Part shown: in pieces, positions 5,421-52,559 of the stretch
Layout: each line of letters opens with the position of its first letter
Numbering within the stretch: position 1 is the stretch's first letter
Source of the DNA: Octopus vulgaris
Lineage: Eukaryota
Assembly (NCBI GenBank): GCA_951406725.2
Contig: OX597824.1
Span: 68,138,001 to 68,202,000 of the forward strand
Direction of reading: 5' to 3'
DNA length: 64,000 bases
Translations under genes and position numbers: made by a program
Notes under the pieces: model-generated
What the model saw: the letters and a program-made list of their open reading frames with translations, nothing else
The model's database searches: none
What the model was told of the DNA's origin: nothing

Positions 5421-6021
5421 CAACAACAACGGTGATAGACAGTTACCAAATTGCAAGATAATCCGTCAGTAAGTCGTGCAACTGTAAGCATCCCTCTATT
5501 TACCCATTAGATAGTACGCGTTTTATTAACGATATTGTTTACAAATATGAGGCTACTACTAGGTTATCTAAGTATGTCCACATAGGTGCATCTTTCAACG
5601 ATATCAAATCATTTCCTCTCTAGAAAAATTTAGAAGTTCAAATTCCGCCGAGGTCGACTTTACCTTTCATTCTTTCGGGGTAGATAAAATAATACCAGTT
5701 GTAATCGACTTGCCCCTACACTAAAATTGGTAGCCCTGTGCCAAAGTCTGAAACCAATTATAATAATGGTTTCGAATATCAAGACCAATAGTTTTTCATG
5801 GGAGGGGCTTAGTCGATACCATCTGTTACTCTATTCTAATGTCTCTGAAAGGATGAAAGGTAATGATGCCCTCGGTGGGGATATGAATTCAGGCGGTTAA
5901 GGGCCAGAATAAAAACCACAAGACACTTTTCCGATGCTTTAACAATTCTGTCAATCAACTGTTCTTGCATGAAAACAAATGTATAATCGTCTTATAATAT
6001 AACCACAAATCAAAAGCTTAC

Positions 6022-6252
6022 CTCTCTAAAAAATCCTATGAGAAACCTCATCGCAGCAAAGAGGCCGTAGAACGGTGAAAATGCACAAATCAGGTTCAAA
6101 ATTATCAAGAAGAAATTGCTCAATATACGGGTGGGTTTTCGTCCATATTTGTCGATAAAGTACGTCGATAGAAATCCACTTATAAGTTGTCCAAAAGTAT
6201 ATAAAGTTTGAGTGGTTTCTGCCAAACCTTCTTTGCTACATACCAGATCCCA
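6022..6252 (-). CDS. SLC22: SLC22/organic cation transporter-like gene, coding exon 3
   Basis: ttttcag acceptor and gtaagc donor; 231 nt, phase 0/0. Translates WDLVCSKEGLAETTQ...FIDKYGRKP...FAAMRFLIGFFRE, with the SLC22 WDLVC and MFS D..GRK motifs. Confidence 0.9.
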
Positions 6253-7152
6253 CTGAAAATATAAATATAGGTATACGATTTTTTATCATTGCAACGAGTT
6301 ACAGAATTTTTTAAAGGCGAGTTATAAACAATTGAATTGACCCCAGTAAGTGGGAATGTTACTTATCTTATCGACCAATGTGGGATAAAAACTAAAGTTG
6401 AATTTTACAAAACTGGAATCCAGAACTAAAGGAACATAGGTAAATGTGTTAATGCAGTTTGATATTTTACCAAATATGCCATTTCGATACCTGGTTTCTG
6501 CTTTTTACAAAAGTTACGAATGGCAGCCTTTTGTGTGGTTTTTACTATTACAGCATACAAACCATGTAATGTATTTTCTGAAATAGTACACCACGTTCCT
6601 TATTGTATCAGGATATTCTCCCCTGGGTATAGTAAAATATATGAGACAAATCTGCTTCCCATATACTTCAACACCCATTTTCAATTATTTGAGGCAATAG
6701 CTCTGTAGTGTAAATAAAAAATCTACCCGTCTTAGAAAATAGTAATGGAAACATGCTATAAAACTTTAGCATAGAGATAGACTCCAAAAAAGTACATAAT
6801 AAACCTGATACCATTTTTCATAGAGAAAATGACAATAATGTGCTGCTGACAAACATCAAACGACTAAAATGCGGGGAAAAGGTGACCTAAGAAACTATGA
6901 AATTACACTGACCAAACTGCTTAATTAAATAAAGTATAAGAGTTAAGGAATATATATCACTTCGTTCGTAATTAGTGCTTCTTGTATGAGTAAAAACAGA
7001 CGTAAACAAAAATACGGCTTCAAACTCAGATAAACAGTATACTAAAAACGTCATACATTTTAGTATAATAGGTAAAAAAATTTTAACAGCACTTAACACA
7101 TACAGACCTCGGCCGTATTTGGGCGGTGAAAACATGCAATTAAATGAACTAC

Positions 7153-11768: not shown

Positions 11769-12075
11769 AAATTTGAAACGTTTATATTAATTTAGCATTA
11801 GAATTCTTCAAGTTGTATAAAAATAATTATTGATTTGCATCGTTCGAAAGAGAAAAAAATTCTACATAAGGTGTAAAAGATAAAAATATTTTGTATGGTG
11901 TTAGTAACAAAATATTTTGTAAGAAATAGAACTTTTATCATCGGTCTTAAATTTATTTTCACCAGTGTATGTGTGTGTGCATGCGTGCACGTATGTGTGA
12001 ATGCGTGTGTGGGGGGTGTATGTGTGTGTAAGTATGTGTGTATGTGTACGTATGTAAGAATAGAGAGATAACTCC

Positions 12076-12165
<90 letters not shown>

Positions 12166-12174
12166 GATACTTAC

Positions 12175-12313
12175 TTGTAAACACGTAGAAATAAGTGTTA
12201 TAAGCAGATATCAGCAAGGAAGTGCTGAATATAATATACTGGGTGGTATGGAAGAATTTACCATCTCCAAGATTGTCCATAATTTCATCAACATTTACTT
12301 CGGAAGCCTTCAT
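12175..12313 (-). CDS. SLC22: SLC22-like gene, coding exon 1
   Basis: ATG at 12313 in aaaATG context. MKASEVNVDEIMDNLGDGKFFHTTQYIIF... matches the SLC22 N-terminus (D.I...LG..G.F). gtaagt donor; 139 nt, phase 1. Confidence 0.85.
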
Positions 12314-13078
12314 TTTTTTTCTTTGTATTTTTGTACGTTTGCTTTTCTGATCTCTGTAAAGTTTTTCAGAATCTTATTCAGTCGTTAATATTTAAAGGTT
12401 CAGTATCATCTACTGCAAGCTGCGATCTATTATTATCTTATTCGCTAATATTCAGTAATATGATTATATTGTTATATAACGAATTCCTGGGATACATTTA
12501 TATATTCACACTTCACTTTCAAAACGGCATTGATAATTGTGAAACTGCTGAACTGACGAAAATAATTGGGAATGAGAAAGAGAGGGGGAGGGGAGAGAGC
12601 GGGGAGAGAGAGATAGTGGGGGGTAAAGGAAGAGAGAGGGAGAGAGACACAGACAGACAGGCTGGCAGGCAGGCAGGCAAGTAGGCAGATAGGTAGGTAG
12701 ATTGTGAAAAAAAAATGAGAAAGAGAGGAAAGCACTGGTACATCGATGTTGCTTCTTTTCTTTTTAACTCAACTGCTTAAGAATTTGGATATTAAAAACA
12801 TCCGAATCAGTTTTTTGAAATTGCATGTATCTATCATTTAGCAATAAAGTTTAAAACAGCTATACTAGTAACATGCTAAAATCAAATTAGCCGTTTGGGT
12901 TGTTGTACAACTGTCTTTCATGTGGAAGCAATATGGTACTTCAGGAAAGTTATTTAATGGTTTTTTCGTTCCTTTTTAATATTTATTGGACTTCTTGATA
13001 ATTTTTTTATTATTTCTGTATGTCTGTAATTGCTTTACGAATTACTCATGTTTCCAACAGTTTAAATGATATTCCGAA

Positions 13079-31798: not shown

Positions 31799-32143
31799 AA
31801 TGATAAAGGTTAACAGGAGAAAAATACTAACGGCTGTTATAGGCTTGCTGGACTAATAATTTTTGTAAAGAATGAGATTCTATCATTAATGTGTCATATA
31901 GAGAAGAGTGGTGGGTAGGAGTACAGAAGGGCGACAAAATTTTGTAAGAGAAAAAGATAGATAGATAGATAGATAGACAGACAGACGAAAAGTCGCGACG
32001 GCCATTGAAAGAGAGCCAATAATTGTCAATAAAAAGTGTGACGTAAGGAAGAGTGAGTGATAACTGGTATTATAGAAGGGCTGGAAGTCATAGCTACCAG
32101 TACGAGAAGGTGGGTATCAGACCCCAACATATCCAGTGCAATA

Positions 32144-33016
32144 TCAGCTGAATAAACATTGCTGTTGTTTGTCAACAACAACTATAGGCGGTGTATATTC
32201 GTTTGTCACTGTTATTTATGACAACATTCGTGCATTTGTACAGGTTTTAGCTTTAAGGCTTTAGGGTTAGGGTTTTAAGGTTAGGGTTAGGGTTTTAGGG
32301 TTAGGGTTAGGGTTCTAGGGTTAGGGTTAGGGTTATGGTTTTAGAGACAGGGTTAGAGCTATCGTTAAGGTTTTAGGGTTAGGGTTAAGGTTTTAGAGTT
32401 AGGGTTAGGGTTAGGGTTAGGGTTAGGGTTAGGGTTAAGGTTTTAGAGTTAGGGTTAGGGTTAAGGTTTTAGAGAGTTAGGGTTAGGGTTAGGGTTAAGG
32501 TTTTAGGGTTAGGGTTAGGGTTGAAGTTTTAGGGTTAGAATTACGGAAAAAAGTGAAAAATGAAGAAATTGGAGGGTTAGGGGCAGGGACAGAAAAGTCT
32601 TTCCGAAAATAGTAGCTGAAAAACAAGAAAAAATACTAAAAGCAATAGAAATGCACGAACAATTATGGTGGTGTCATGAAGTAAACATGCTTCAGATGCA
32701 CTCGTTTATTCATACAAAGATAACTGAGATGAAATATGTCATAAATAACAGTGACAAACGAAATATACACTGCTGGAAGTTGTTGTTGACAAACAACAGC
32801 AGTAATTTTATTTAGCTGAATACACGTCATTGATTGGTTGAAATTACCAAAATACGACAACTTTAACATGAAATAACTTCGTAAACATAAACTTTTCTCA
32901 AAAACGCTAAGAGTAAAAGGTGTTTTATATGACACATTCTACCAGTATAAGAAGTTTGAAAGTGTTTAGTTACAAAAAATTATTTTCTAAATCTGCCGGT
33001 CAATAGGTAAAGATCC
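32144..33016. mobile_element. Long-TIR non-autonomous element carrying a TTAGGG array (left end truncated)
   Basis: Co-linear with 37198-38146; ends ggtaaagatcc. Confidence 0.85.
32247..32538 (+). repeat. Interstitial telomere-like array (TTAGGG, TTAAGG and TTTTAGGG variants)
   Basis: Directly visible. Confidence 0.95.
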
Positions 33017-33019
33017 ACT

Positions 33020-35806: not shown

Positions 35807-36810
35807 CTTGGAAAAGAACATTTTGTATACTATTAGTTTTGATGGGGTCTACCTACGACAAAGATGGAAATGCCATGTTGAGAATAACTTTGATTATAAC
35901 TCTGATATTCAATTATGGCAGATGTGGAGCTAAACAACAATAAAGCAACAACAGTCAAAATGGCTTCGGCACAAACGATGCTATCGTTATCTCAAATACA
36001 AATGTATGTTGTTGGTTGACCTGCTAGAAACACCAGCCAAATCTCCTTTAAATTACATCTTAGCATCTTGAATAGAGGAGGGATAAAACATATTGAATAT
36101 TGTAATTCTGGATATGCAACGCGTTAGAGAAAGGTGAGGTGGCTACGGCTAGAATGCCACTGATCGTAGTCATTGGTAGGATTGATTTTGGTTTATATAT
36201 TCTTATCTTTGATAGTTCATGCGTCAAAGTTTACAATGACCTGAGAATTGTCAAATAAGAAAATAAAGAAAGAAAATATCACACTAACCATATTTTTTAT
36301 TTTTTTATGTGTTCTTTTCAAGCCTTGCCAGGCTTATGGGCCCGGTTTCCCGGTTTCTGTGGCGTATGTATTCCCCCCAGCTGGACGAGACGCCAGTCCA
36401 TCACAGCGTTACCCAAGAAACAGGAAGAAAGAGTGAGAGAAAGTCGGGGCGAAAGAGTATAACAGGGGTCGCCACCACCCCCTGCCGGAGTCTCGTGGAG
36501 CCTTTAGGTGTTTTCGCTCAATAAACACACACAACTGGGAATCGAAACCACGATCCTCCGACCGCGAGTCCGCTGCCCTAACCACTGGGCCATTGCGCCT
36601 CCACACACTAACCATATACACAGTCATATTTGATTTACATATGTACATCATTATTGAATGACAAGAGATTCCTCTAAATTTATCTGCCCTTTGATAGAAT
36701 TGTTTTTCATACTGCAGGATTCCACAACCCTATCATGAAACAGGTTTGCACTGGATCACGTCATAAGTAGCGCTCACAAACGACACGACTCACACACGCG
36801 CACGCCTCCA

Positions 36811-36880
<70 letters not shown>

Positions 36881-37197
36881 TTTTAATACTGGGCTGGATT
36901 TATCATATACACTGAAGGGGCAGGGGAGAAATTATTTTATGTTCATAAATATGCGACAATTCTATCACGGAATGGAAACTACTTTTAATTTCAAATTCAA
37001 ACAAAGGTTCGGCGGCTTCTGTATTTCTATTGTGAATGGGTCACAAGTTCGGCTGTTTTAATGTTTCTATTGTGAACAGGTCATGAAAACCTAAAAAATA
37101 ACCTGATCTTTATCTCTTGACTGGATTTGTTGCTAATAGTGACAGTTGTACTTTCGTTCTTGAATTGTAATATATTTGTTAATCTAGCATATATCTG

Positions 37198-38146
37198 GGA
37201 TCTTTACCCTTTGAACGACAGATCGAGAAATTAATTCTTTTTAACTAAACACTTTCAAACTTCGGACACTGGTAGAAGGTGTCATATGAAACATCTTTTA
37301 CTCTTAGTGGTGTTCAGAAAAGTTTATATTTTCAAAGTTATTTCGTGTTAAAGTTGTAGTATTTCGGTAATTTCAACCAATCAATGACATGTATTCAGCT
37401 GAATAAAATTATCGCTGTTGTTTGTCAACAACAACTATCGGCGGTGTATATTTCGTTTGTCACTGTTATTTATGACATCGTTCGTGCGTTTGTACTGGTT
37501 TTAGCTTTAGGGTTTTAGGGTTAGAGTTAGGGTTTTAGGGTTAAGGTTAGGGTTTTAGGGTTAGGGTGAGGGTTTTAGGATTAAGGTTAGGGTTTTAAGG
37601 TTAGGGTTTTAGAGTTAGGGTTATGGTTAGGGTTTTAGGGTTAGGGTTAGGGTTGGGGTTTTAGGGTTATAGTTACGGAAAAAATGAAAAATGAAGAAAT
37701 TGGATGGGTAGGGCAGATGGGGGGAGTCTTTCCGAAAATAGTAGCTGGTAAACAGGGAAAAAAACCTAAAAGCAGTAGAAATGCACGAACAATTATGGTG
37801 GTGCCATGAAGTAAACATGCTTCAGATACACTCGTTTATTCATACGAACGTAACTGAGATGAAATATGTCATAAATAACAGTGACAAACGAAATATACAC
37901 CGCCGGAAGTTGTTGTTGACAAACAACAGCAGTAATTTTATTCAGCTGAATACACGTCATTGATTGGTTGAAATTACCGAAATACGAGAACTTTAACACG
38001 AAATAACTTCGTAAATATAAACTTTTTTCAAAAACGCTAGGAGTAAAAGACGTTTTATATGATACATTCTAGCAGTATCCGAAGTTTGAATGTGTTTAGT
38101 TACAAAAAATTATTTTCTAAATCTGCCGGTCAAAAGGTAAAGATCC
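37198..38146. mobile_element. Complete 949-bp long-TIR element with an internal TTAGGG-type array
   Basis: About 280-bp imperfect TIRs (37198-37478 and 37866-38146) with termini GGATCTTTACC...GGTAAAGATCC; array at 37507-37668; no ORF. Confidence 0.9.
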
Positions 38147-38479
38147 GGAATTTCCTATTAGAAACTCTTCAGACAGAGAAATTAAACAATGTTATTTAAT
38201 CAACTATTTAATTTCTAAGAGGAAATGTTTTACATTTTTATCTAACATATAAATTTCTGTAATTCCTATTCGTAAGCGAAACACGAGTAATGGTGAGTAA
38301 ATGATACCAATAAATTTTCCAACTTCCTCTTTTGTTATACAATAACTCTGCAAACAATATTTTCAAAATGTTCAACTTTAATATATACCATCAACACATA
38401 TGGATTGCAGTAATAGAATATGATGTACGTCAAGAGGAAACAGGTGGGATTTACCCTACCTACCAACATAATACATACA

Positions 38480-38538
<59 letters not shown>

Positions 38539-38661
38539 ACGCGAATAACAGAAAATGGAATGAACTGTCGATGTGCTTTGCATAGTGTACAAGTGTTTTT
38601 AGCCAAATCGTATTTCAGTATGTGTATGTGCGTGAGCATCATACATACATACATACATACA

Positions 38662-38697
<36 letters not shown>

Positions 38698-38706
38698 TAT
38701 ACATAT

Positions 38707-38776
<70 letters not shown>

Positions 38777-39286
38777 TCTTATTATAAAAGGCAGATTTTA
38801 TCTGCCTCCCTTTGGGAGTTATACAAATCTACAATATAGGATTTCTTCAATTACAATTTACCTGGCAGTTTTAAGAGTACAATGCATCGCGTCATGCCAG
38901 GTCCAGTTTTTAAAATTTAAACTCCAATTAAGCAAAATTTACAGAAAACTCACATTCTGGTGTGTGTGTCAAATGCTTTTCTTAGTCTGGTTTACAGCAC
39001 ACGCAAACGCACACACACAGTGGGCAACGAATAAAATGAAAGTAATTGACTTACTGTAGTGAGTGATTCTTTCACTCTGCCTCCCAATTCCTCTTTCAAC
39101 ACATAGACACACAAATATATAAATAAAATTGTAAGCTAACGTGCGTGTGTGTGAGTGGGTGTGTGTGGGTGTGCACGTGTGTGTGTGTGAGGGTGCGTGT
39201 CTGTGTGTGTGTGTGTGCGTGTGCGTGAGTGTGTGACAGGAAAGTTTTTTACGACGAACATAACACCTATATCCAAGTAGCAGAAA

Positions 39287-39660
39287 GATAAGACAGTAAG
39301 GTGTGATTTGAGGGAGATTTGGCTGCTATTTCTACCATGTCTAGCTGCCATGTAGGGGTCTCCCTCATAGGCTCATACATACATATATACATAGATAAGA
39401 CAGTAAGGTGTGATTTGGGGGAAATTTGGCTGCTATTTCTACCAGGTCTAGCTGCCATGTAGGGGTCTCCCTCATAGGCTCATACATACATATATACATA
39501 GATAAGACAGTAAAGTGTGATTTGGGGGAAATTTGACTGCTATTTCTACCAGGTCTAGCTACCATGTAGAGGTCCCCCTCATTGGCTCATATATATATAC
39601 ATACATAAGACAGTAAGGTGTGATTTGAGGGAGATTTGGCTGCTGTTTCTACCAGGTCTG
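39287..39660. repeat. 107-bp minisatellite within the Helitron units
   Basis: Unit starts at 39287, 39394, 39501 and about 39605. One more unit in the second Helitron copy (41340-41817) and one fewer in the later copies. Confidence 0.9.
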
Positions 39661-40020
39661 TTAGGCCTTCTCGTGTAAACTCAAGCTTTCTCATGCCTTG
39701 AACATAAGACCAAAGCAGAGAATGTATTCTTTTATTCTTCTGCTTTTTCCAGCCATTGGTCTGTGGCCATGCTGGGGCAATGCCTTGAAGAATTGTAGTT
39801 TAATGAATCAACTCCAGTTTTATTTTTGTAAGCATTGTACTTATTCTATCTGTTTCCTTTGTCAAACCACTAGGTGACAGGAATGTAAACAAACCAACAT
39901 TCATTGTCAAGCAGTGGTGGAGGACAATCACAAGCACAGACACGCACACACACACACATACATGCATACACATATACACACATACATACATACATATATA
40001 TATATGTGTGTATATATATA

Positions 40021-40279
40021 TTGCAGCCTGGAAGGTATTTGTAAGCCATTTAAGAAACACACAAAAACCGTTACATTCACTTCAACATTTAAATTTAATT
40101 TGCCAAAATATTTTCGTCGCTTTGAGACCGCGACCTGTTCACTGACAAAAATATCGTGCTAACAGGTCGCGGTCTCAAAGCGACGAAAATATTTTGACAA
40201 ATTAAATTTAAATGTTGAAGTGAATCTAACGGTTTTTGTGTGTTTCTTAAATGGCTTATAAACACCTTCAACGCTGCAA
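40021..40279. repeat. Long inverted repeat (119-bp arms, 21-bp spacer); repeated at 42160-42418 and 45971-46229
   Basis: Arms 40021-40139 and 40161-40279 are near-perfect reverse complements. Confidence 0.92.
40099..40149 (-). ncRNA. Type I hammerhead-like fold with G3-C8 core swap (copies at 42238-42288 and 46049-46099)
   Basis: tttgtca-GTGAACA-g-gtcgc(ggtctcaaa)gcgac-GAA-AATATT-T-tggcaaa: 7-bp stem I, 5-bp stem II, palindromic stem III. Confidence 0.6.
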
Positions 40280-41214
40280 CTGTTTTCGTTCCAGCACACG
40301 ATCTCAGATCAAGTCACTTGCTATGCAAGTACATCTCTGTAACTATATATATATTTATATATATATATATATGTATATTGGTAAAAACAGTAAGATAACA
40401 AAAGAAAGAAAGAGACCTCAATATTATGTAAATAGAGGAAATCTTTATATATAAAAGTGAGGTTGTGTGTCTGTCTCCTACGATTTAGATTCCTAACTAC
40501 TCCCACATTTTGCGGTGCAGTTTAACCAAAACCGGGTATCTTATAGTCGTGATTCATATCGAGACCGTCTGGGTATTAGCGCGCGTCTACGATGAGTCTA
40601 TGATTTTAAAAAAAAATTTACCATCAATTTTTCCCATTTTTAATCCATTTTTGACATATATAAGGGAAGTAACTCTCTAAAATTTATTATTAAATCTCAG
40701 AACGTAAAAAGCTACAGTAACACCCTCCCCCTTTGTGGTTAGCCATATTGAGATGGCTATTATACTTTACATCTCTAAAAATGCTTATATAATTATTTCC
40801 CTTACAAACCCGAGCAACGCCGGGCGATACTGCTAGTCTTATTATAAAAGGCAGATTTTATCTGCCTCCCTTTGGGAGTTATACAAATCTACAATATAAG
40901 ATTTCTTCAATTACAATTTACCTAGCAATTTTAAGAGTACAATGCATCGCGTCATGCCAGGTCCAGTTTTTAAAATTTAAACTCCAATTAAGCAAAATTT
41001 ACAGAAAACTCACATTCTGGTGTGTGTGTCAAATGCTTTTCTTAGTCTGGTTTACACCACACGCAAACGCACACACACAGTGGGCAGCGAATAAAATGAA
41101 AGTAATTTACTTACTGTAGTGAGTGATTCTTTCACTCTGCCTCCCACTTCCTCTTTCAACACATAGACACGCAAATATATAAATAAAATTGTAAGCTAAC
41201 GTGCGTGTGTGTGA

Positions 41215-41250
<36 letters not shown>

Positions 41251-42491
41251 GTGAGGGTGCGCGCGTGTGTGTGTGTGTGTGTGCGTGTGCGTGAGTGTGT
41301 GACAGGAAAGTTTTTTACGACGAATATAAGTAGCAGAAAGATAAGACAGTAAGGTGTGATTTGAGGGAGATTTGGCTGCTATTTCTACCATGTCTAGCTG
41401 CCATGTAGGGTCTCCCTCATAGGCTCATACATACATATATACATAGATAAGACAGTAAGGTGTGATTTGGGGAAATTTGGCTGCTATTTCTACCAGGTCT
41501 AGCTGCCATGTAGGGGTCTCCCTCATAGGCTCATACATACATATATACATAGATAAGACAGTAAGGTGTGATTTGGGGGAAATTTGGCTGCTATTTCTAC
41601 CAGGTCTAGCTGCCATGTAGGGGTCTCCCTCATAGGCTCATACATACATATATACATAGATAAGACAGTAAGGTGTGATTTGGGGGAAATTTGGCTGCTA
41701 TTTCTACCAGGTCTAGCTACCATGTAGAGGTCCCCTCATTGGCTCATATATATATACATACATAAGACAGTAAGGTGTGATTTGAGGGAGATTTGGCTGC
41801 TGTTTCTACCAGGTCTGTTAGGCCTTCTCATGTAAACTCAAGCTTTCTTATGCCTTGAACATAAGACCAAAGCAGAGAATGTATTCTTTTATTCTTCTGC
41901 TTTTTCCAGCCATTGGTCTGTGGCCATGCTGGGGCAATGCCTTGAAGAATTGTAGTTTAATGAATCAACTCCAGTTTTATTTTTGTAAGCATTGTACTTA
42001 TTCTATCTGTTTCCTTTGTCAAACCACTAGGTGACAGGGATGTAAACAAACCAACATTCGTTGTCAAGCAGTGGTGGAGGACAATCACAAGCACAGACAC
42101 GCACACACACACACATACATGCATACATACATATATATATATATGTGTGTATATATATATTGCAGCGTGGAAGGTGTTTGTAAGCCATTTAAGAAACACA
42201 CAAAAACCGTTACATTCACTTCAACATTTAAATTTAATTTGCCAAAATATTTTCGTCGCTTTGAGACCGCGACCTGTTCACTGACAAAAATATCGTGCTA
42301 ACAGGTCGCGGTCTCAAAGCGACGAAAATATTTTGACAAATTAAATTTAAATGTTGAAGTGAATCTAACGGTTTTTGTGTGTTTCTTAAATGGCTTATAA
42401 ACACCTTCAACGCTGCAACTGTTTTCGTTCCAGCACACGATCTCAGATCAAGTCACTTGCTATGCAAGTACATCTCTGTAACTATTTATAC

Positions 42492-42543
<52 letters not shown>

Positions 42544-43623
42544 TGTTAAAAACAGTAAGATAACAAAAGAAAGAAAGAGACCTCAATATTATGTAAATAG
42601 AGGAAATCTTTATATATAAAAGTGAGGTTGTGTGTCTGTCTCCTACGATTTACATTCCTAACTACTCCCACATTTTACGGTGCAGTTTAACCAAAACCGG
42701 GTATCTTATAGTCGTGATTCATATCGAGACCGTCTGGGTATTAGCGCGCGTCTACGATGAGTCTACGATTTAAAAAAAAATTACCATCAATTTTTCCCAT
42801 TTTTAATCCATTTTTGACATATATAAGGGAAGTAACTCTCTAAAATTTATTATTAAATCTCAGAACGTAAAAAGCTACAGTAACACCCCTCCCCCTTTGT
42901 GGTTAGCGATATTGAGATGGCTATTATACTTTACATCTCTAAAAATGCTTATATAATTATTTCCCTTACAAACCCGAGCAACGCCGGGCGATACTGCTAG
43001 TCTTATTATAAATCTCTTATTATAAAAGGCAGATTTTATCTGCCTCCCTTTGTCACTTATAGAAATCTACAATATAGCATTTCTTCAATTACAATTTACC
43101 TAGCATTTTTAAGAGTACAATGCATCGCGTCATGCCAGGTCCAGTTTTTAAAATTTAAACTCCAATTAAGCAAAATTTACAGAAAACTCACATTCTGGTG
43201 TGTGTCAAATGCTTTTCTTAGTCTGGTTTACACCACACGCAAACGCACACACACAGTGGGCAACGAATAAAATGGAAGTAATTCACTTACTGTAGTGAGT
43301 GATTCTTTCACTCTGCCTCCCACTTCCTCTTTCCACACATAGACACGCAAATATATAAATAAAATTGTAAGCTAACGTGCGTGTGTGTGTGTGTGTGCGC
43401 GTGTGTGTGTGTGTGAGGGTGCGTGTGTGTGTGTGTGTGTGTGTGTGCGTGTGCGTGAGTGTGACAGGAAAGTTTTTTACGAAGAATATAAGACCTATAT
43501 CCAAGTAGCAGAAAGATAAGACAGTAAGGTGTGATTTGAGGGAGATTTGGTTGCTATTTCTACCATGTCTAGCTGCCATGTAGGGGTCTCCCTCATAGGC
43601 TCATACATACATCTATACATAGA

Positions 43624-44338
43624 CTAGCAGTATCGCCCGGCGTTGCTCGGGTTTGTAAGGGAAATAATTATATAAGCATCTTTAGAGATGTAAAGTATAA
43701 TAGCCATCTCAATATGGCTAACCACAAAGGGGGAGGGGGTGTTACTGTAGCTTTTTACGTTCTGAGATTTAATAATAAATTTTAGAGAGTTACTTCCCTT
43801 ATATATGTCAAAAATGGATTAAAAATGGGAAAAATTGATGGTAATTTTTTTTTTAATCGTAGACTCATCGTAGACGCGCGCTAATACCCAGACGGTCTCG
43901 ATATGAATCACGACTATAAGATACCCGGTTTTGGTTAAACTGCACCGCAAAATGTGGGAGTAGTTAGGAATGTAAATCGTAGGAGACAGACACACAACCT
44001 CACTTTTATATATAAAGATTTCCTCTATTTACATAATATTGAGGTCTCTTTCTTTCTTTTTTGTTATCTTACTGTTTTTACCAATATATATATATAAATA
44101 TATATATAGTTACAGAGATGTACTTGCATAGCAAGTGACTTGATCTGAGATCGTGTGCTGGAACGAAAACAGTTGCAGCGTTGAAGGTGTTTATAAGCCA
44201 TTTAAGAAACATACAAAAACCGTTAGATTCACTTGTGGCAAATTAAATTTAAATGTTGAAGTGAATGTAACGGTTTTTGTGTGTTTCTTAAATGGCTTAC
44301 AAACACCTTCCACGCTGCAATATATATATACACACATA

Positions 44339-44369
<31 letters not shown>

Positions 44370-45041
44370 GTGTATATGTGCATGCATGTATGTGTGTGTG
44401 TGTGCGTGTCTGTGCTTGTGATTGTCCTCCACCACTGCTTGACAACGAATGTTGGTTTGTTTACATCCCTGTCACCTAGTGGTTTGACAAAGGAAACAGA
44501 TAGAATAAGTACAATGCTTACAAAAATAAAACTGGAGTTGATTCATTAAACTACAATTCTTCAAGGCATTGCCCCAGCATGGCCACAGACCAATGGCTGG
44601 AAAAGCAGAAGAATAAAAGAATACATTCTCTGCTTTGGTCTTATGTTCAAGGCATGAGAAAGCTTGAGTTTACATGAGAAGGCCTAACAGACCTGGTAGA
44701 AACAGCAGCCAAATCTCCCTCAAATCACACCTTACTGTCTTATGTATGTATATATATATGAGCCAATGAGGGGGACTTCTACATGGTAGCTAGACCTGGT
44801 AGAAACAGCAGCCAAATTTCCCCCAAATCACACCTTACTGTCTTATCTATGTATATATGTATGTATGAGCCTATGAGGGAGACCCCTACATGGCAGCTAG
44901 ACATGGTAGAAATAGCAGCCAAATCTCCCTCAAATCACACCTTACTGTCTTATCTTTCTGCTACTTGGATATAGGTGTTATATTCGTCGTAAAAAACTTT
45001 CCTGTCACACACTCACGCAGACGCACACACACACGCACCCT

Positions 45042-45072
<31 letters not shown>

Positions 45073-45450
45073 TCACACACACGCACGTTAGCTTACAATT
45101 TTATTTATATATTTGCGTGTCTATGTGTGGAAAGAGGAAGTGGGAGGCAGAGTGAAAGAATCACTCACTACAGTAAGTGAATTACTTTCATTTTATTCGT
45201 TGCCCACTGTGTGTGTGCGTTTGCGTGTGGTGTAAACCAGACTAAGAAAAGCATTTGACACACACCAGAATGTGAGTTTTCTGTAAATTTTGCTTAATTG
45301 GAGTTTAAATTTTAAAAACTGGACCTGGCATGACGCGATGCATTGTACTCTTAAAAATGCTAGGTAAATTGTAATTGAAGAAATGCTATATTGTAGATTT
45401 GTATAACTCCCAAAGGGAGGCAGATAAAATCTGCCTTTTATAATAAGAGA
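43624..45450 (-). mobile_element. Composite Helitron copy inserted in reverse orientation into array unit 3
   Basis: Removing it restores cataga|taagacagta exactly (A|T site, no TSD). It has its own TC and CTAG termini. Confidence 0.85.
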
Positions 45451-46301
45451 TAAGACAGTAAGGTGTGATTTGGGGGAAATTTGGCTGCTATTTATACCAG
45501 GTCTAGCTACCATGTAGAGGTCCCCCTCATTGGCTCATATATATATACATACATAAGACAGTAAGGTGTGATTTGAGGGAGATTTGGCTGCTGTTTCTAC
45601 CAGGTCTGTTAGGCCTTCTCATGTAAACTCAAGCTTTCTCATGCCTTGAACATAAGACCAAAGCAGAGAATGTATTCTTTTATTCTTCTGCTTTTTCCAG
45701 CCATTGGTCTGTGGCCATGCTGGGGCAATGCCTTGAAGAATTGTAGTTTAATGAATCAAATCCAGTTTTATTTTTGTAAGCATTGTACTTATTCTATCTG
45801 TTTCCTTTGTCAAACCACTAGGTGACAGGGATGTAAACAAACCAACATTCGTTGTCAAGCAGTGGTGGAGGACAATCACAAGCACAGACACGCACACACA
45901 CACACATACATGCATACACATATACACACATACATACATACATACATATATATATGTGTGTATATATATATTGCAGCGTGGAAGGTGTTTATAAGCCATT
46001 TAAGAAACACACAAAAACCGTTACATTCACTTCAACATTTAAATTTAATTTTCCAAAATATTTTCGTCGCTTTGAGACCGCGACCTGTTCACTGACAAAA
46101 ATATCGTGCTAACAGGTCGCGGTCTCAAAGCGACGAAAATATTTTGACAAATTAAATTTAAATGTTGAAGTGAATCTAACGGTTTTTGTGTGCTTCTTAA
46201 ATGGCTTATAAACACCTTCAACGCTGCAACTGTTTTCGTTCCAGCACACGATCTCAGATCAAGTCACTTGCTATGCAAGTACATCTCTGTAACTATATAT
46301 A

Positions 46302-46352
<51 letters not shown>

Positions 46353-47985
46353 ATTGGTAAAAACAGTAAGATAACAAAAGAAAGAAAGAGACCTCAATAT
46401 TATGTAAATAGAGGAAATCTTTATATATAAAAGTGAGGTTGTGCGTCTGTCTCCTACGATTTACATTCCTAACTACTCCCACATTTTGCGGTGCAGTTTA
46501 ACCAAAACCGGGCATCTTATAGTCGTGATTCATATCGAGACCGTCTGGGTATTAGCGCGCGTCTACGATAAGTCTACGATTAAAAAAAAAATTTACCATC
46601 AATTTTTCCCATTTTTAATCCATTTTTGACATATATAAGGGAAGTAACTCTCTAAAATTTATTATTAAATCTCAGAACGTAAAAAGCTACAGTAACACCC
46701 CCTCCCTTTGTGGTTAGCGATATTGAGATGGCTATTATACTTTACATCTCTAAAAATGCTTATATAATTATTTCCCTTACAAACCCGAGCAACGCCGGGC
46801 GATACTGCTAGTCTTATAATAAAAGGCAGATTTTATCTGCCTCCCTTTGTAAGTTATAGAAATCTACAATATAGGATTTCTTCAATTACAATTTACCTAG
46901 TATTTTTAAGAGTAGAATGCATCGGGTCATGCCAGGTCCAGTTTTTAAAATTTAAACTCCAATTAAGCAAAATTTACAGAAAACTCACATTCTGGTGTGT
47001 ATGTCAAATGCTTTTCTTAGTCTGGTTTACAGCACACGCAAACGCACACACACAGTGTGCAACGAATAGAGTGAAACTAGATGTAATATTTGTTTCTGTC
47101 TATCACGCTGATAGATACATGAGTAAAATGTATGGGAAGCTAACAGATAAGTGTGAGTGAAAATGTTCTTGGAAGAGAGTAAATTAGCGACAGAGTGATT
47201 TGATGAAGACTAAACTGAAAGTATGAAACAGTGTTTATGTATAAACAGACGACACTTATATAAACCCTTTCGTTACCAAACCGCCCGAATTTACCTATTC
47301 ATATTTAAATGAGAATATCAGAGTAAATCTCTTTAGTACATTCGTGAAAACACGTATTATACTTCGTAAACACTTCAAATACAGTTTTGTACAAAAATCG
47401 AAGTGTAATTTTAATTCCGTGAATTATGGGAGATTTTTTTCCGAAATTTGTTCCTATTGTGTTTTCAAAATTTGTAATTCTGACAAAAAATGGATACGAA
47501 TTTCATTATATCAAGCAGCGAGTCAGAATTCGAAGGATTTTCTACTGAAGACCTTCATAAATCTAACTCTATGACTGAAAAAAAAAGCATCTTTATATAA
47601 GAGTGAAGTTGTGTGTTTGTCCCCTTCGATTTAGATTCGTAACTACTCCCACATTTTGCGGTGCAGTTTAACCAAAAGCGGGTATCTTATAGTCGTGATT
47701 CATATCGAGCCCTTCTGGGTATTAGCGCGCGTCTACGATGAGTCTACGATTTTTAAAAAATTTACCATCATATTTTTCCATTTTAATGCATTTTTTTCGC
47801 TATTATATAAGGGAAGTAACTCTCTAAAAATATCTACGATGTGTCAACGATTTTTTTAAAAAATTTACCTTCATTTTTTTTCAATTTTTAATGCATTTTT
47901 TTGCTATTTTTTTGGCTATAACTCTCTAAAAATGCTTATATAGTTATTTCCCTTACAACCCGAGCAACGCCGGGCGATACTGCTA

Positions 47986-48035
<50 letters not shown>

Positions 48036-48036
48036 T

Positions 48037-48086
48037 TAAAAGCAGCAGAAATTTAACAAAAATTTGTTAAATTTCTGCTGCTTTTA
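48037..48086. repeat. Perfect 24-bp inverted repeat with 2-bp spacer
   Basis: taaaagcagcagaaatttaacaaa-aa-tttgttaaatttctgctgctttta. Confidence 0.92.
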
Positions 48087-48162
48087 TACCTCTGGTATTT
48101 GAGTACTCTTTTTTTCACCTTGTTTCACATTTATGTGTTTACTCCGGTATACATACATATCT

Positions 48163-48246
<84 letters not shown>

Positions 48247-48687
48247 TATAATTCACTGTGCGTGTGTGTGTGTGTGTGTGTTTGTGGGTCTCCTTTATGT
48301 ACGGCCAAACCGGTGGATCAATCTGTACCAAATTTGGCATGAAGGTTTTTCATTCATCGGGGAAGGTTCTAGTGGGAGTGGGGGGCAAATTTTGGCCCTT
48401 GCCCATATGGGGTGGGTAGTAACCCCCTTACCCCGCCAACAATCGATCTTATCGATTTTTTTTTACTTTTCAGCGGATTCCTATGTTTTCAAAGACAGCG
48501 ATTCTGAATATGCAAAAAAAAAAAAAGTTTACAAAATTTTAAATTCTCTCTCTCCCCCAAATTTTCAATTTTTTACCTTTTTTCAATTTTCTTTTTCAAT
48601 CTACGTGAGAAAATATGGAGATTAAGAATATGGAAAAGAATTTTTTTCTTCTTCAAATTTTCTATGAAGAACTCCAAAATTGATCCA

Positions 48688-49086
48688 CAGGAGTGGCTGT
48701 GTGGTAAGTAGCATGTTTACTAACCACATGGTTCCGGGTTCAGTCCCACTGCGTGGCACCTTGGGCAAGTGACTTCTACTATAGCCTCGGGCCGACCAAA
48801 GCCTTGTGAGTGGATTTGGTAGACGGAAAACTGAAAGAAGCCCGTCGTATATATGTATATATATATGTGCGTGTATGTTTGTGTGTCTGTGTTTGTCCCC
48901 CTAGCATTGCTTGACAATGTTTATGTCCCCGTAACTTAGCGGTTCGGCAAAAGAGTTCGATAGGATAAGTACTGGGCTTACAGAAGAATAAGTCCCGGGG
49001 TCGAGTTGCTCGATTCAAGGCGGTGCTCCAGCATGGCCGCAGTCAAATGACTGAAACAAGTAAAAGAGTAAAAGAGTAAAAGAGTA
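48688..49086 (+). mobile_element. Full-length SINE family C
   Basis: Head ggctgtgtggtaag...gggttcagtccc, CORE-like gtggcaccttgggcaagtg, internal TA/TG tract, and (gtaaaaga)n tail. Confidence 0.88.
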
Positions 49087-49384
49087 CATACATCGCCACC
49101 CCATCCCGTTGCCTAAAACAGAAGATGAACTGCTAAAAATAACAGTTAAATGTCGGGAAATTTTTTGTGTTTGTATAATTAGAAGAGAGAATACGTTGTT
49201 ATCAAAAGCGTTAAAACTTTATTTATTTGATCGATCTGTTACTCAGGCTTTTGATTTCATCTGATACACACTTTGCTATCATTTATAGGGAGAATTGCAA
49301 CAGCAACACAAGCTACCCTGTGGTGAGACGGTACCAAATGTCAATGCATGTGTTACCGAACATTGCATAAAACTTTAGCAAGAG

Positions 49385-49980
49385 TCAATGACTATGTGAG
49401 CGAGCCATCTTAGCTCCACGTAGTGATACTGTTACTGTCGACAAAATCAATGGGGATCTCTTGCAGCTGTTGCCAGGACAAGAACAATCTTTCAAAGCCA
49501 TCGACACTGTCATTGACCAGGACCAAGCTGTAGTTTTTCCATCTGAGTTCCTGAACTCTCTACAGCCATAAAAAAGGGGGGCTCCGATCATGCCGCTCAG
49601 AAATCTGGATCCGCTTCCTTTGTACAATGGCACCAGATTGGTGGTGAAAGCGATGAAACCCATGTCCTAGGAGCAGCTATTATTGGGAAATATAAGGGTG
49701 AGGATGACTTTATTCAACGGATCCCATTAATGCCATCTGACCTCCGCTTTGAATTTAAACGGCTCCAATTCCCAATGAAACTAAGTTTTGCTATGTCGAT
49801 AAACAAATCTCAAGGACAATCTCTCAAGGTGGTTGAACTTAACCTTGCTTCTCCTTGCTTCTCTCATGGGCAATTGAATGTAGGATGTTCGTGAATTGGA
49901 AGGCCCCAAACTTTTTTTATTTGTACCCCAATTAAAGGACACACTGAAAACATTGTATATTTAGAAGTTCTACAAAATTA
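49385..49980 (+). mobile_element. Helitron RepHel PIF1-like helicase C-terminal relic
   Basis: LCERAILAP, FPSEFLNSL, PIMPLRNLD, NGTRLVV, FKRLQFP, FAMSINKSQGQSL and CFSHGQL motifs, with stops and frameshifts. Confidence 0.9.
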
Positions 49981-50137
49981 AATTGTGATTGATTTCAGAA
50001 TTTGTTTTAATAACTTAGTTTATACTCACGTCATCTGATAGAATTTTTATGAAAATATATTTTTTATCAGAATAAATATATTCATTATTTACATCATTTA
50101 CATTCAACGGATATTTGTCCTCATCTTGTTTGTTGTT

Positions 50138-50183
50138 AATACGACGTTTCGGCTGATATACCTTCCAGCCTTCTTCAGATGTC
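50138..50183 (-). ncRNA. Minimal type I hammerhead ribozyme (Penelope-type)
   Basis: gacat-CTGAAGA-a-ggctg(..)cagcc-GAA-ACGT-C-gtatt: canonical core, GUC triplet, palindromic ACGT stem III, one stem I mismatch. Confidence 0.65.
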
Positions 50184-50249
50184 TTGGGGAAATTTCGAAC
50201 CTGGGTTCTCATTCCTAAGTTATTCTTCGATGTTATTATTATTATTATT

Positions 50250-50285
<36 letters not shown>

Positions 50286-50304
50286 CAGGTCACTGCTTGG
50301 AATC

Positions 50305-50403
<99 letters not shown>

Positions 50404-50454
50404 CAACAACAACATCGAAGAATACCTTAAGAATGAGAATCCAGGTTCGAAAAT

Positions 50455-50677
50455 ACATACATAAAACATACAAATCTGCTCATACATACGTACATACAGA
50501 CAGACAGTCAGACAGGCATGCAGACAGACAGACAGACATATATACATACATACATGCATGCAAACAAAAATACCCTGTTGTTGATATTGAGATTCTAACG
50601 AAGGAGCCTTGGATCTGGGTTGGAAACCGATTCTTTCTCTATTGGCAAGAAATCATGAAATAAAACTGAATAATGAT
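50455..50677 (+). mobile_element. R4-type RLE element 3' UTR fragment ending in (CATA)n
   Basis: Matches 16948-17170. Confidence 0.65.
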
Positions 50678-50718
50678 ATACATACATACATACATACATA
50701 CATACATACATACATACA

Positions 50719-50749
<31 letters not shown>

Positions 50750-51179
50750 TTACATACACGCATATGCATGCGTGTAGTTACATATATAGATATAGATATG
50801 CATACACACACACACACACACACGCACATGCACATACATACCCACACATACGCACGTATGTACACACGCATACACACATACGTACACAGAAACCAGCGTG
50901 CACGTGCAGATAACGGCCCAAGTTTGTTTCAGCTTAATCAAACAATCTAAAGACAAGATTAAGAAAAAGATTAGTTAAGAACCAGTATTTGTTCACTAAC
51001 CACACTATCACCACTAACACCACCCTATCTGACCATACCAGTGGCAAACTGTAGCAAAAACAAACAAAAAAAAAAGAAAATACAGTGAATATATAAAACC
51101 TCATTCAGTGTTGAACTTACATCAGAAATGAACCTCAAATCATTATATTATGTGATTTATTATTATATCTTTATATTTA

Positions 51180-51617
51180 TTTCTTTATTGGCCACAGGGG
51201 ACTAAACATAGAGGGTGTAAGAGTTAGCACTTCCTTCTCTAAGCTTGGATTCGAAATCGAATCCAAGAATCATCGGTCGTCAAATACCAATGCATGCAAA
51301 GGCGCGAAATTAAGATTCCTTTGTTCTGACAAAAAGTGATTGATCGTCTCCCTTTGACCTCCGACCTGAGCCATGTCAGGCGAAGTTCAAGTGGACGAAC
51401 GATGACCTACTTAAACAGAGAGGGGACAAACAAGGACAGACACAGGGATTAAGTCAATTACATCGACGCCAGTGCGTAACTGGTACTTATTTAATAGACC
51501 CCGAAAGGATGAAAGACAAAGTCGACCTCGGCGGAATTTGAACTCAGAACGTAACGCCAGACGAGATACAGCTAGGCATTTCACCCGGCGCGCTAATTTT
51601 CTGCCAGCTCGCCGCCT
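51180..51617 (-). mobile_element. SINE family B split by a ~200-bp insertion (51216 to about 51415)
   Basis: SINE tail at 51180-51215 resumes at about 51412; taaaca.agaggg is duplicated. Confidence 0.7.
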
Positions 51618-52559
51618 TATATCTTTATATTGTTTATTACATAGGGATGAGACGGGATTAAGTCGGTCGGATTACTGACTTCCTGTGTGTATTATGCACT
51701 GCTCTGGAGTTGAATTTCTATTACTACTACTGCTGCTGCTATGACTTCCATTACTACTGTTGCTGCTGCTACTGTCTCTAGTACTATTTCATTTGGTGGT
51801 GGTGGAGGTGGTGGTGGTGATGGTGGTGGTGGTGGTGGTGGTGGTGGTGGTGGTGGTGGTGGTGGTGCTACTGCTGCTGCTGCTGCTACAACTACTACTA
51901 CTATTGTTTTCCAAGTCTGGTACACGTTCACAGATTTGGGTGAAAGTGGTCATTCGAGTAGATTAATTTCGGTTTTTGATTGGTTCAATATCCGTCTCGA
52001 GCCTAGACGGACAAAAGGTTATGTCGACCTTGGTAAGATTTGAACTCGAAACTCGAAAGAGCCAGAACTAAATATAAAGCATTGTTGTCCTAAACTCTAC
52101 CGATTTTGTTAATCCACCATCCTGGGAGCCTCATATGATTGCTTGAGCTATTAACAATAACAGCCAAATGCTCCTGAAATCATGCCCCTGAAATCATGCC
52201 CCTGAAATCACGCCCCATCATCATATTAAAATAAGATGCATCAGATAATGTCAACTGGATTATAACATTGTAGAAGAAAAAGAAAGTTTGGCATGGCTGG
52301 AAAGGCCTTTCATCGTAGATTTTTCTGTCTGCATGTATGTCTATTTGCTCTGTCACTAGATATTACAAACAATTTCTTGAAATTATCCTTAAGTCGGACT
52401 GAAAGCCCTCCAGAAAAAAACAGCCAATTGATTGTCATCGTTGTCCGAAATTCTCCCCCAAAACGTTATCGCATTTACCTGCCACAAATCATCTATACAA
52501 CGGTAATGTGGAGATTCCATCGACCGTATTGCCCGTCTGGTAGAGAGTTGTGAGCACTC

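Follow-up and report, generated by a model that had tools for sequence, protein, structure and literature searches.

Five non-autonomous Helitrons in the Octopus vulgaris genome form an array probably stacked by successive insertion at resident 5' ends

Canonical Helitron1 transposons, represented by Helraiser and Helibat, start with 5'-TC, end with CTAG-3' downstream of a subterminal hairpin, insert between A and T and acquire new ends by read-through (PMC4778049). The preference of Helraiser for AT-rich DNA is strongest 3' of the insertion (PMC4778049). Head-to-tail Helitron arrays, reported by Xiong et al. (2016), have been read as rolling-circle concatemers (PMC5876387, PMC12628747). Tandem dimers of transposable elements can also arise by double insertion, as described by McGurk and Barbash (2018) in a paper where the word Helitron does not occur (PMC5932611). 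In Fusarium, a FoHeli4 copy had inserted at a distance of 2 bp from another's 5' end, and three tandem Helitron copies were read as the product of either double insertion or rolling circle (PMC5148889). On how Helitrons choose and cut their targets, the papers examined go no further than "A|T in AT-rich DNA".

The array described here lies in a stretch of 64,000 nucleotides from contig OX597824.1, hereafter the window. It contains five Helitron elements placed end to end, versus the four counted earlier. The original prediction had proposed a head-to-tail array with CTAG|TC joins at 40836/7, 43000/1 and 46811/2. These joins are present, and the unit borders are real Helitron termini that match the ends of dispersed copies, but a whole inverted unit inside the third element had been overlooked. 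On the left, a (TACA)n/(TA)n microsatellite constitutes the host target tract (38641..38776). It is followed on the forward strand by U1 (38777..40836), a composite non-autonomous Helitron of subfamily A with the 5' tag GGGAG, which lacks the first base or bases of TCTCTT and has its nearest full-length relative elsewhere at 0.93% divergence. Next come U2 (40837..43000, forward), also of subfamily A and with a start 2 nt short, and a 12-nt stub (43001..43012, forward) with 11/12 identity to the U4 start, the single mismatch being a private base of U4 that the stub does not carry. U3 (43013..46811, forward), of subfamily A, has a full TCTCTT start at 43013 and the older tag GTCAC, and U4 (46812..47986, forward) is a 1175-bp element of subfamily B with a 2-nt-short start, bordered on the right by (TA)24 (47987..48035). 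U3 is interrupted at 43623/45451 by the inverted unit (43624..45450, reverse strand), which belongs to subfamily A, has a collapsed foldback centre and is nested in the U3 minisatellite. This unit entered at A|T and left no duplication, CATAGA|TAAGAC rejoining an intact repeat, and its 3' flank, T-N7-ATAGA, resembles the target motif presented below. The last unit does share its ends with the others and carry different cargo, as had been noted; U4 represents a separate dispersed subfamily, found solo at other loci (L023-L025, L027, L029), and is likely the oldest resident.

All five units have a 3' CTRR with a hairpin about 11 nt upstream. In agreement with the predicted hairpin-CTAG end, the hairpin CCCGAGCAACGCCGGG precedes every CTAG, and its folding energy is -4.5 kcal/mol. 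The family start, obtained from 2767 copies preceded by A, is TCTCTTATTATAAAAGG; the full 5' TC terminus is kept in U3 and in the inverted unit, and shortened in U1, U2 and U4. Dispersed copies with identical termini were found in a genome search. The array units are canonical Helitron1 elements of the non-autonomous type. The hairpin and CTAG are supplied by a 395-bp Helitron (40442..40836, forward), for which an own TC start at 40442 had been correctly identified; this internal start recurs at 42607, 46418 and 47590. The element is also mobile by itself: among the first 100 copies of about 395 bp, 48 have other flanks and all 100 are preceded by A. Since this part inserts independently elsewhere, the long unit is composite, with a 5' end of its own and that of the 395-bp element.

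Most of the cargo described in the original prediction was recovered. The 107-bp minisatellite is present in 3.5 copies in U1 (39286..39659, forward) and in 4.5 copies in U2 (41339-41816), and dispersed copies of the unit contain 2-7. A fragment at 39727..39990, which we take to be SINE-like although the analysis itself shows only a dispersed repeat, is 66-80% identical to other such copies at many places in the window and in the loci. The MITE-like foldback (40021..40279) has 119-bp arms with 6 mismatches between them and a 21-nt loop; diverged copies of the arms (88-90%) are present outside the Helitron, and the best foldback matches that could be placed all lie within a Helitron context. 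The ribozyme fold attributed to this foldback was not recovered: an Rfam search of 36000-52000 at E<=5 gave 117 matches, none of them to a ribozyme family and all of them generic hairpin or microsatellite miRNA-type models under the gathering score. A self-cleaving ribozyme was rejected as unsupported, no ribozyme covariance model having matched at this threshold. The units do carry captured cargo, but it was not captured at this locus: the search for dispersed copies of the long unit found 51 other subfamily A copies in the sample, and capture is a single event in the ancestor of this dispersed subfamily. The PIF1-type helicase relic announced downstream also exists, outside the array (49250..49990, forward), broken by stops and frameshifts; one of the three pieces scanned matched the Pfam Pif1_2B_dom (E 6.5e-7, 49572-49658). 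It belongs to another Helitron-like element, with a TC start near 48160. Since its 5' end is different and no 3' end of the array family was found behind it, the relic is not demonstrated to be the mobiliser.

The array had been interpreted as a rolling-circle concatemer, in which repeated copying of one circle gives a block that is inserted as a whole, with later divergence and later addition of the inverted copy and U4. The exact CTAG|T joins and the likeness of U1-U3 in subfamily and orientation fit this interpretation, which is the usual one in the literature (PMC5876387), and near-identical neighbours with full junctions do exist at L185 and L182. However, the units come from different donor lineages. 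They are 1.0-2.2% apart, the same as unrelated copies (median 1.37% over 1472 non-local pairs), and their tags differ at sites polymorphic among dispersed copies. Moreover, a lineage-marking 13-bp deletion in U2, common to 7/51 dispersed copies, does not occur in U1, U3 or the inverted unit. The closest relative lies elsewhere in the genome for U1, for U2 and for the inverted unit; for U3 it is the inverted copy within it (1.27%). One unit is inverted and nested, the last belongs to another subfamily, and the joins are 2 nt short or bear a stub, in contrast to the precise junctions of Helraiser circles. Thus the array has neither common lineage markers nor complete RTS-LTS junctions, nor a single orientation and element type. 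For U1-U4 as a whole a concatemer is largely refuted, and we consider it very unlikely.

The same mixture is seen genome-wide, where 55 of 68 adjacent pairs of sampled neighbours belong to different subfamilies and differ in structure. Short-junction pairs have a common structure in 7/44 cases, versus 11.6% of random pairs, and among the 44 pairs none sharing structure was below 0.5% divergence. Neighbouring units are independent copies, as a tandem array made by double insertion requires. Note that the window array is more uniform than most, with all four long units in subfamily A, versus about 27% of sampled units; since there are four such units, and U3 is closest to its own nested inverted copy, local copying may have contributed. 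Four subfamily A units at one place would also fit a tandem duplication of a first dimer by unequal exchange, with dispersed copies later converting the units until they looked unrelated. Unequal exchange does act on the family, as seen elsewhere in a homogenised array, where 10 or more units have kept their (TA)7 spacers and show 0-7 differences per 2.18 kb. Here, however, the three junctions are unlike (short, full with a stub, short), markers along whole units would need to be replaced by conversion, and the inverted copy, U4, the motif and the polarity would be left unexplained, making this route unlikely.

The window junctions are not full LTS-RTS joins: two are 2 nt short and one has the 12-nt stub. 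The first 2 nt of TCTCTT are likewise missing at 196/255 exact junctions. Long (TA)n left flanks track short junctions (22/33 versus 1/18, p=2e-5), and pure (TA)8, counted by eye, stands ahead of 79 among the first 100 of 397 short starts; 271 full starts lie behind (TA)8. A G precedes 37 among the first 100 of 658 short starts and 76/2848 full starts. The short start is not a separate lineage, being present in all subfamilies, nor is the inner, 2-nt-short register general, because in the 395-bp family the full-length form accounts for 69 among the first 100 of 225 junctions. Nicking of full-length residents at their third base does occur (L286, L291) but was rejected as the general route: TCTCTCTT starts would then be common and only 5 exist, with a short junction following 1/5, and long (TA)n flanks are found at most short-junction arrays. 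Where a stub precedes a full start, the next junction is short in 4/5 cases found, and the L286 stub carries a private base of the resident. The 12-nt stub of the window is likely a duplication of the resident 5' end produced by the insertion of U3, although the missing private base of U4 speaks against this. A stub with a short start was rejected as an insertion scar, since a junction follows in 1/8; these are in-place duplications.

Could the array be an assembly artefact? In the read check the flank was found in 4/21 rows, four runs at 42900-43720 were dominated by family copies, and neither the contigs nor 3% of a single read set, examined also for partial arrays in the population, gave a locus-specific span of a junction; reads thus did not confirm the locus in other individuals. 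Against this, the units have 1-2% private differences and distinct indels, and the junctions are clean, biological and of types known from 255 other places; an artefact is extremely unlikely.

The insertion sites of the family read A|T-N5-7-ATAAA, which is how the element itself begins once its first 2 nt are removed, and the junctions agree with this preference. A T follows CTAG in 145/147 non-junction flanks. TAAA starts at +7 to +10 in 32/69 non-TA 3' flanks, versus 10.3+-2.9 in shuffled flanks (maximum 21 in 1000), and ATAAA peaks at +7/+8; in the element itself, ATAAA stands at +8 when the start is short and at +10 when it is full. With such a motif, a resident 5' end is a likely landing place for newcomers, and arrays would be extended to the left. 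General target duplication was rejected, as it is absent at ordinary targets: non-microsatellite duplications occur in 4/227 elements, every one at a resident 5' end. Leftward insertion likely duplicates, on occasion, 8-12 nt of the resident start. Our literature search, of limited reach, found no prior description of a target motif mimicking the element's 5' end. In maize, Yang and Bennetzen reportedly found Helitrons inserted near or into related Helitrons, with an oriented A/T bias at the insertion sites, which may anticipate part of the motif.

Relative age also points to growth to the left. Using the nearest neighbour among 198 sampled units (from about 3500) as a proxy for age, the left unit has the closer relative in 27/39 short-junction pairs (p=0.004), and in 21/30 when one pair per locus is taken (p=0.008). 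A young tag stands left of an old one 14 times, versus 2 in reverse. Polarity at full junctions was not significant (13/22, p=0.15), and 8 spacer pairs gave no age trend. Mixed multimers might instead have been built off the chromosome, by recombination or template switching between circles, or by dimer read-through, and inserted as blocks. Read-through did produce the composite units themselves, and short junctions, if poorly re-cut, might travel intact. However, the younger-left polarity, the long (TA)n left flanks that go with short junctions and the stubs derived from residents all point to events at the chromosomal site, and we regard preformed multimers as highly improbable.

We observe, then, mixed donors, a nested inverted copy, a target motif, 2-nt-short junctions and a younger-left polarity. 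Probably, five non-autonomous Helitrons of separate origin were stacked here by successive insertion at the resident 5' end, at sites (A|T, with ATAAA 7-8 bases on) that resemble the family's own 5' end minus 2 bases. In such a stack U4 would have come first, into a (TA)n tract, followed by U3 with the 12-nt duplication of the resident start, and then, to its left, by U2 and U1. At some point, the inverted copy would have entered a motif-like site within U3. The Rep nuclease may use one site to read both target and 5' end, nicking the resident top strand at its first or third base. The CTAG-3'OH of the newcomer would be joined to the nicked T of the resident, and the 3'OH of the flank, sometimes first extended by 8-12 nt, to the 5' T of the newcomer. 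The ideal target would be a resident without its first TC beside long (TA)n, the TC being lost before or during insertion. More tentatively, Helitron transposases in general might pick targets by the read-out that defines their 5' end (T-N5-7-ATAAA), making resident 5' ends capture sites for polar, self-targeting arrays; the nick would prime 8-12 nt of synthesis, giving short duplications and longer (TA)n, and many cited rolling-circle arrays would be insertion stacks.

A motif at a fixed position that imitates the 5' end can be tested directly by biochemistry, and it could help to predict where Helitrons insert. Caution is called for when head-to-tail arrays are cited for rolling-circle concatemers, as they can consist of independent insertions stacked together; where such stacks are polar, they preserve the sequence in which subfamilies were active. 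Neither double insertion nor the AT-rich targets of Helitrons are new. As occurs with Helraiser and Helibat, our elements have the same termini and hairpin, A|T insertion, AT-rich preference on the 3' side and ends gained by read-through; here, however, the 3' preference takes the form of a positioned motif that repeats the element's 5' end with the register shortened by 2-3 nt, and duplications of 8-12 nt accompany some of the insertions at 5' ends (PMC4778049). The arrays of Xiong et al. have the same CTAG|TC joins and one orientation, whereas ours has full-length units of mixed subfamilies and ages, polarity and short junctions (PMC5876387, PMC12628747). With the tandems of McGurk and Barbash it has in common a site preference that yields tandems of unlike copies, later expanded by unequal exchange; in those the target survives as a TSD, whereas here the own 5' end is the target and is renewed at each insertion (PMC5932611). 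The Fusarium Helitrons likewise insert into themselves and carry multiple 5' ends, but they are single cases of non-canonical elements, for which the available text gives no target motif, polarity or counts (PMC5148889).

Our results confirmed that the array is a real feature of the window, where Helitron-ended repeats are bounded by a (TA)-rich tract on one side and by (TA)24 on the other; an assembly artefact is barely credible. Three units of subfamily A (U1, 38777-40836; U2, 40837-43000; U3, 43013-46811) are followed by one of subfamily B (U4, 46812-47986), all on the plus strand. The original prediction was accurate on the three CTAG|TC junctions and on the TC start inside the first unit at 40442, and its minisatellite, foldback and unlike last unit were likewise found as described. 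Overlooked were a whole subfamily A unit on the minus strand (43624-45450), which sits between the A and the T of a U3 minisatellite copy with zero duplication, and a 12-nt stub (43001-43012) directly before U3. A ribozyme fold had also been claimed; Rfam returned 117 matches at E<=5, none of them a ribozyme. Diverged foldback arms occur outside the Helitron at two other loci (L010:1697-1834 and L241:2827-2935), each itself struck by a Helitron insertion. The predicted downstream PIF1 relic is indeed PIF1-like (Pfam match in one of three pieces), but its 5' end differs from that of the array. Besides this relic, the old Helitron-like element at 48160-50110 includes a TC start and a SINE-like insert; its 3' end is apparently cut by another repeat. 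Elsewhere in the window, two element copies (37198-38146 and about 32130-33019) carry inverted arms of ~286 bp around a TTAGGG/TTTTAGGG telomere-like core, and exon-like frames on the minus strand (6010-6282 and 11798-12373) presumably resemble an organic cation/MFS transporter gene, judging from a motif.

Every end feature tested fits canonical Helitron membership. The 5' 190 bp, used as query, retrieved 604 candidates genome-wide, 40 of which scored at 99-100%. Exact-pattern searches found 2767 starts of the form A|TCTCTTATT, 81 full starts preceded by another base (76 G and 5 C) and 658 starts without the first TC (among the first 100 matches listed, 61 followed A, 37 G and 2 T). From these counts, TCTCTT is the family's true start; the junctions in the window fall 2 nt short of it, as do 196 junctions genome-wide, and another 59 are full. 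Many subfamilies have their first 240-420 bp in common, vary in cargo, and terminate in a Helitron element of ~395 bp. This element is mobile alone: among the first 100 of 2198 starts listed, all preceded by A, 48 had other flanks and 52 the fixed subfamily A flank. U4 was also found as solo copies. Thus, the composite structure proposed for the units holds, although the cargo capture dates to the ancestor of a dispersed subfamily. Note that the younger 5' tag, the variable 5' bases, forms a second small hairpin (CTCCC...GGGAG) at 38807-38820 and equivalent positions; older tags lack it.

The units came from mixed donors. Their pairwise divergence in the window was 0.98-2.16% (1341 non-repetitive columns), and the median across 1472 non-local subfamily A pairs was 1.37%. 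For U1, U2 and the inverted unit, the closest relative lies at another locus, while the nearest to U3 is the inverted unit; a 13-bp deletion of U2, present in 7 of 51 dispersed copies, is in none of the other window units. The array failed the concatemer tests, and the rolling-circle concatemer first put forward, now very unlikely, was the wrong mechanism. We also sampled neighbours at 60 loci, 40 of them taken from the short junctions that were listed first and the other 20 from full junctions, excluding units with another terminus inside. Adjacent pairs were unlike in structure in 55 of 68 cases. Structure was the same in 7 of 44 short-junction pairs, near the random-pair value of 11.6%, with none less than 0.5% apart, and in 6 of 24 full-junction pairs, including one near-identical four-unit array that is possibly a genuine concatemer. 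Loci L185 and L182, where neighbours are near-identical and junctions full, are the strongest candidates for genuine rolling-circle multimers; for the window, multimers made off the chromosome are highly improbable. Unequal exchange with conversion is an unlikely origin. In a homogenised array elsewhere, at L293-L294 (G000:C2:206.16-206.18 Mb), neighbours are 0-7 differences apart and (TA)7 spacers are retained; its near-identical 2.18-kb subfamily A units, at least ten in number, are a double-insertion junction amplified to an incipient satellite. L295 (G000:C24:3.317-3.328 Mb) is a 5.5-kb higher-order repeat holding nested and inverted Helitron units.

We consider it likely that the array is a stack of separate insertions. 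The target carries a positioned motif. From 245 loci we drew 158 distinct 3' flanks; removing 11 junction-type and 78 TA-repeat flanks left 69, with both families pooled and two near-duplicates and two flanks derived from element starts still included. Of the 69, 32 had a TAAA beginning between +7 and +10, compared with 3 at +19 to +22 and a shuffled expectation of 10.3±2.9 (1000 shuffles). ATAAA peaked at +7 (15) and +8 (10), with only 1 at +10; in the element's own start it lies at +8 if short and at +10 if full. In TA tracts, CTAG and the next full start were most often 12 nt apart (25/85). Pure (TA)8 precedes 79 short starts after A (among the first 100 of 397 listed) and 271 full starts, and the array left edge lay behind (TA)8 or longer in 22 of 33 short-junction versus 1 of 18 full-junction arrays. 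The generality of the short register is weakened by the 395-bp family, since 69 of the first 100 of its 225 junctions listed were full, 17 lacking 2 nt and 14 lacking 3 nt. Twelve of those 17 share one contig, G000:C8, perhaps as one amplified composite or through local hopping.

The short-junction arrays are polar. As a proxy for age we took how far each of 198 sampled units lies from its closest copy of like structure at a different locus. By this measure, 27 of the 39 short-junction pairs that had data placed the younger unit on the left (p=0.004), as did 21 of 30 when one pair per locus was counted (p=0.008). The younger 5' tag was in the left unit only in 14 pairs and in the right unit only in 2. 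In full-junction pairs the left unit was younger in 13 of 22, and polarity was not significant. The window values were 0.93 (U1), 0.65 (U2), 0.88 (inverted unit), 1.55 (U3) and 1.46% (U4).

Ordinary insertions were precise (227 elements). Non-microsatellite duplications of 10-11 nt were found at 4 of the 227, each at the 5' end of a resident, an element already in place. A stub followed by a full start occurred in 5 cases, with a short junction next in 4 (window U3 and loci L285-L287) and not in the fifth, L136. Since the L286 stub bears a private base of the resident, it is a copy of the target that begins at the target's third base; in the window, one base separates the stub from U4. A stub followed by a short start was rejected as an insertion scar: these are in-place duplications, with a junction next in just 1 of 8. 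At L255-L256, two 303-bp Helitrons are flanked by a 14-nt duplication of non-element target.

The chemistry proposed for this stacking is less certain than the stacking itself. Established HUH chemistry, in excerpts of PMC4778049 and PMC5876387, comprises a nick, a 5'-phosphotyrosine, 3'-OH priming and strand transfer. We propose that target and element 5' end would be recognised alike, so that the resident start would be nicked and a newcomer joined on its left. Stubs would arise by priming ahead of joining, and loss of TC beside (TA)n, through slippage or faulty nick repair, would yield the best target. This self-targeting model is testable and replaces the mechanism of the original prediction.

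In the abstracts and excerpts covered by a full-text literature search, among them excerpts of PMC13286980, PMC11934779, PMC12628747, PMC3789558 and PMC12001565, no Helitron was described with a target motif that resembles the 5' end at a set position, with arrays that are both polar and mixed, or with short duplications; a prior description of any of these features in Helitrons is possible. Excerpts of other papers describe related behaviour: tandems via double insertion are known for TSD-making elements (PMC5932611), Fusarium has single Helitron self-insertions near 5' ends (PMC5148889), and Helraiser prefers AT-rich sequence on the 3' side of its target (PMC4778049).
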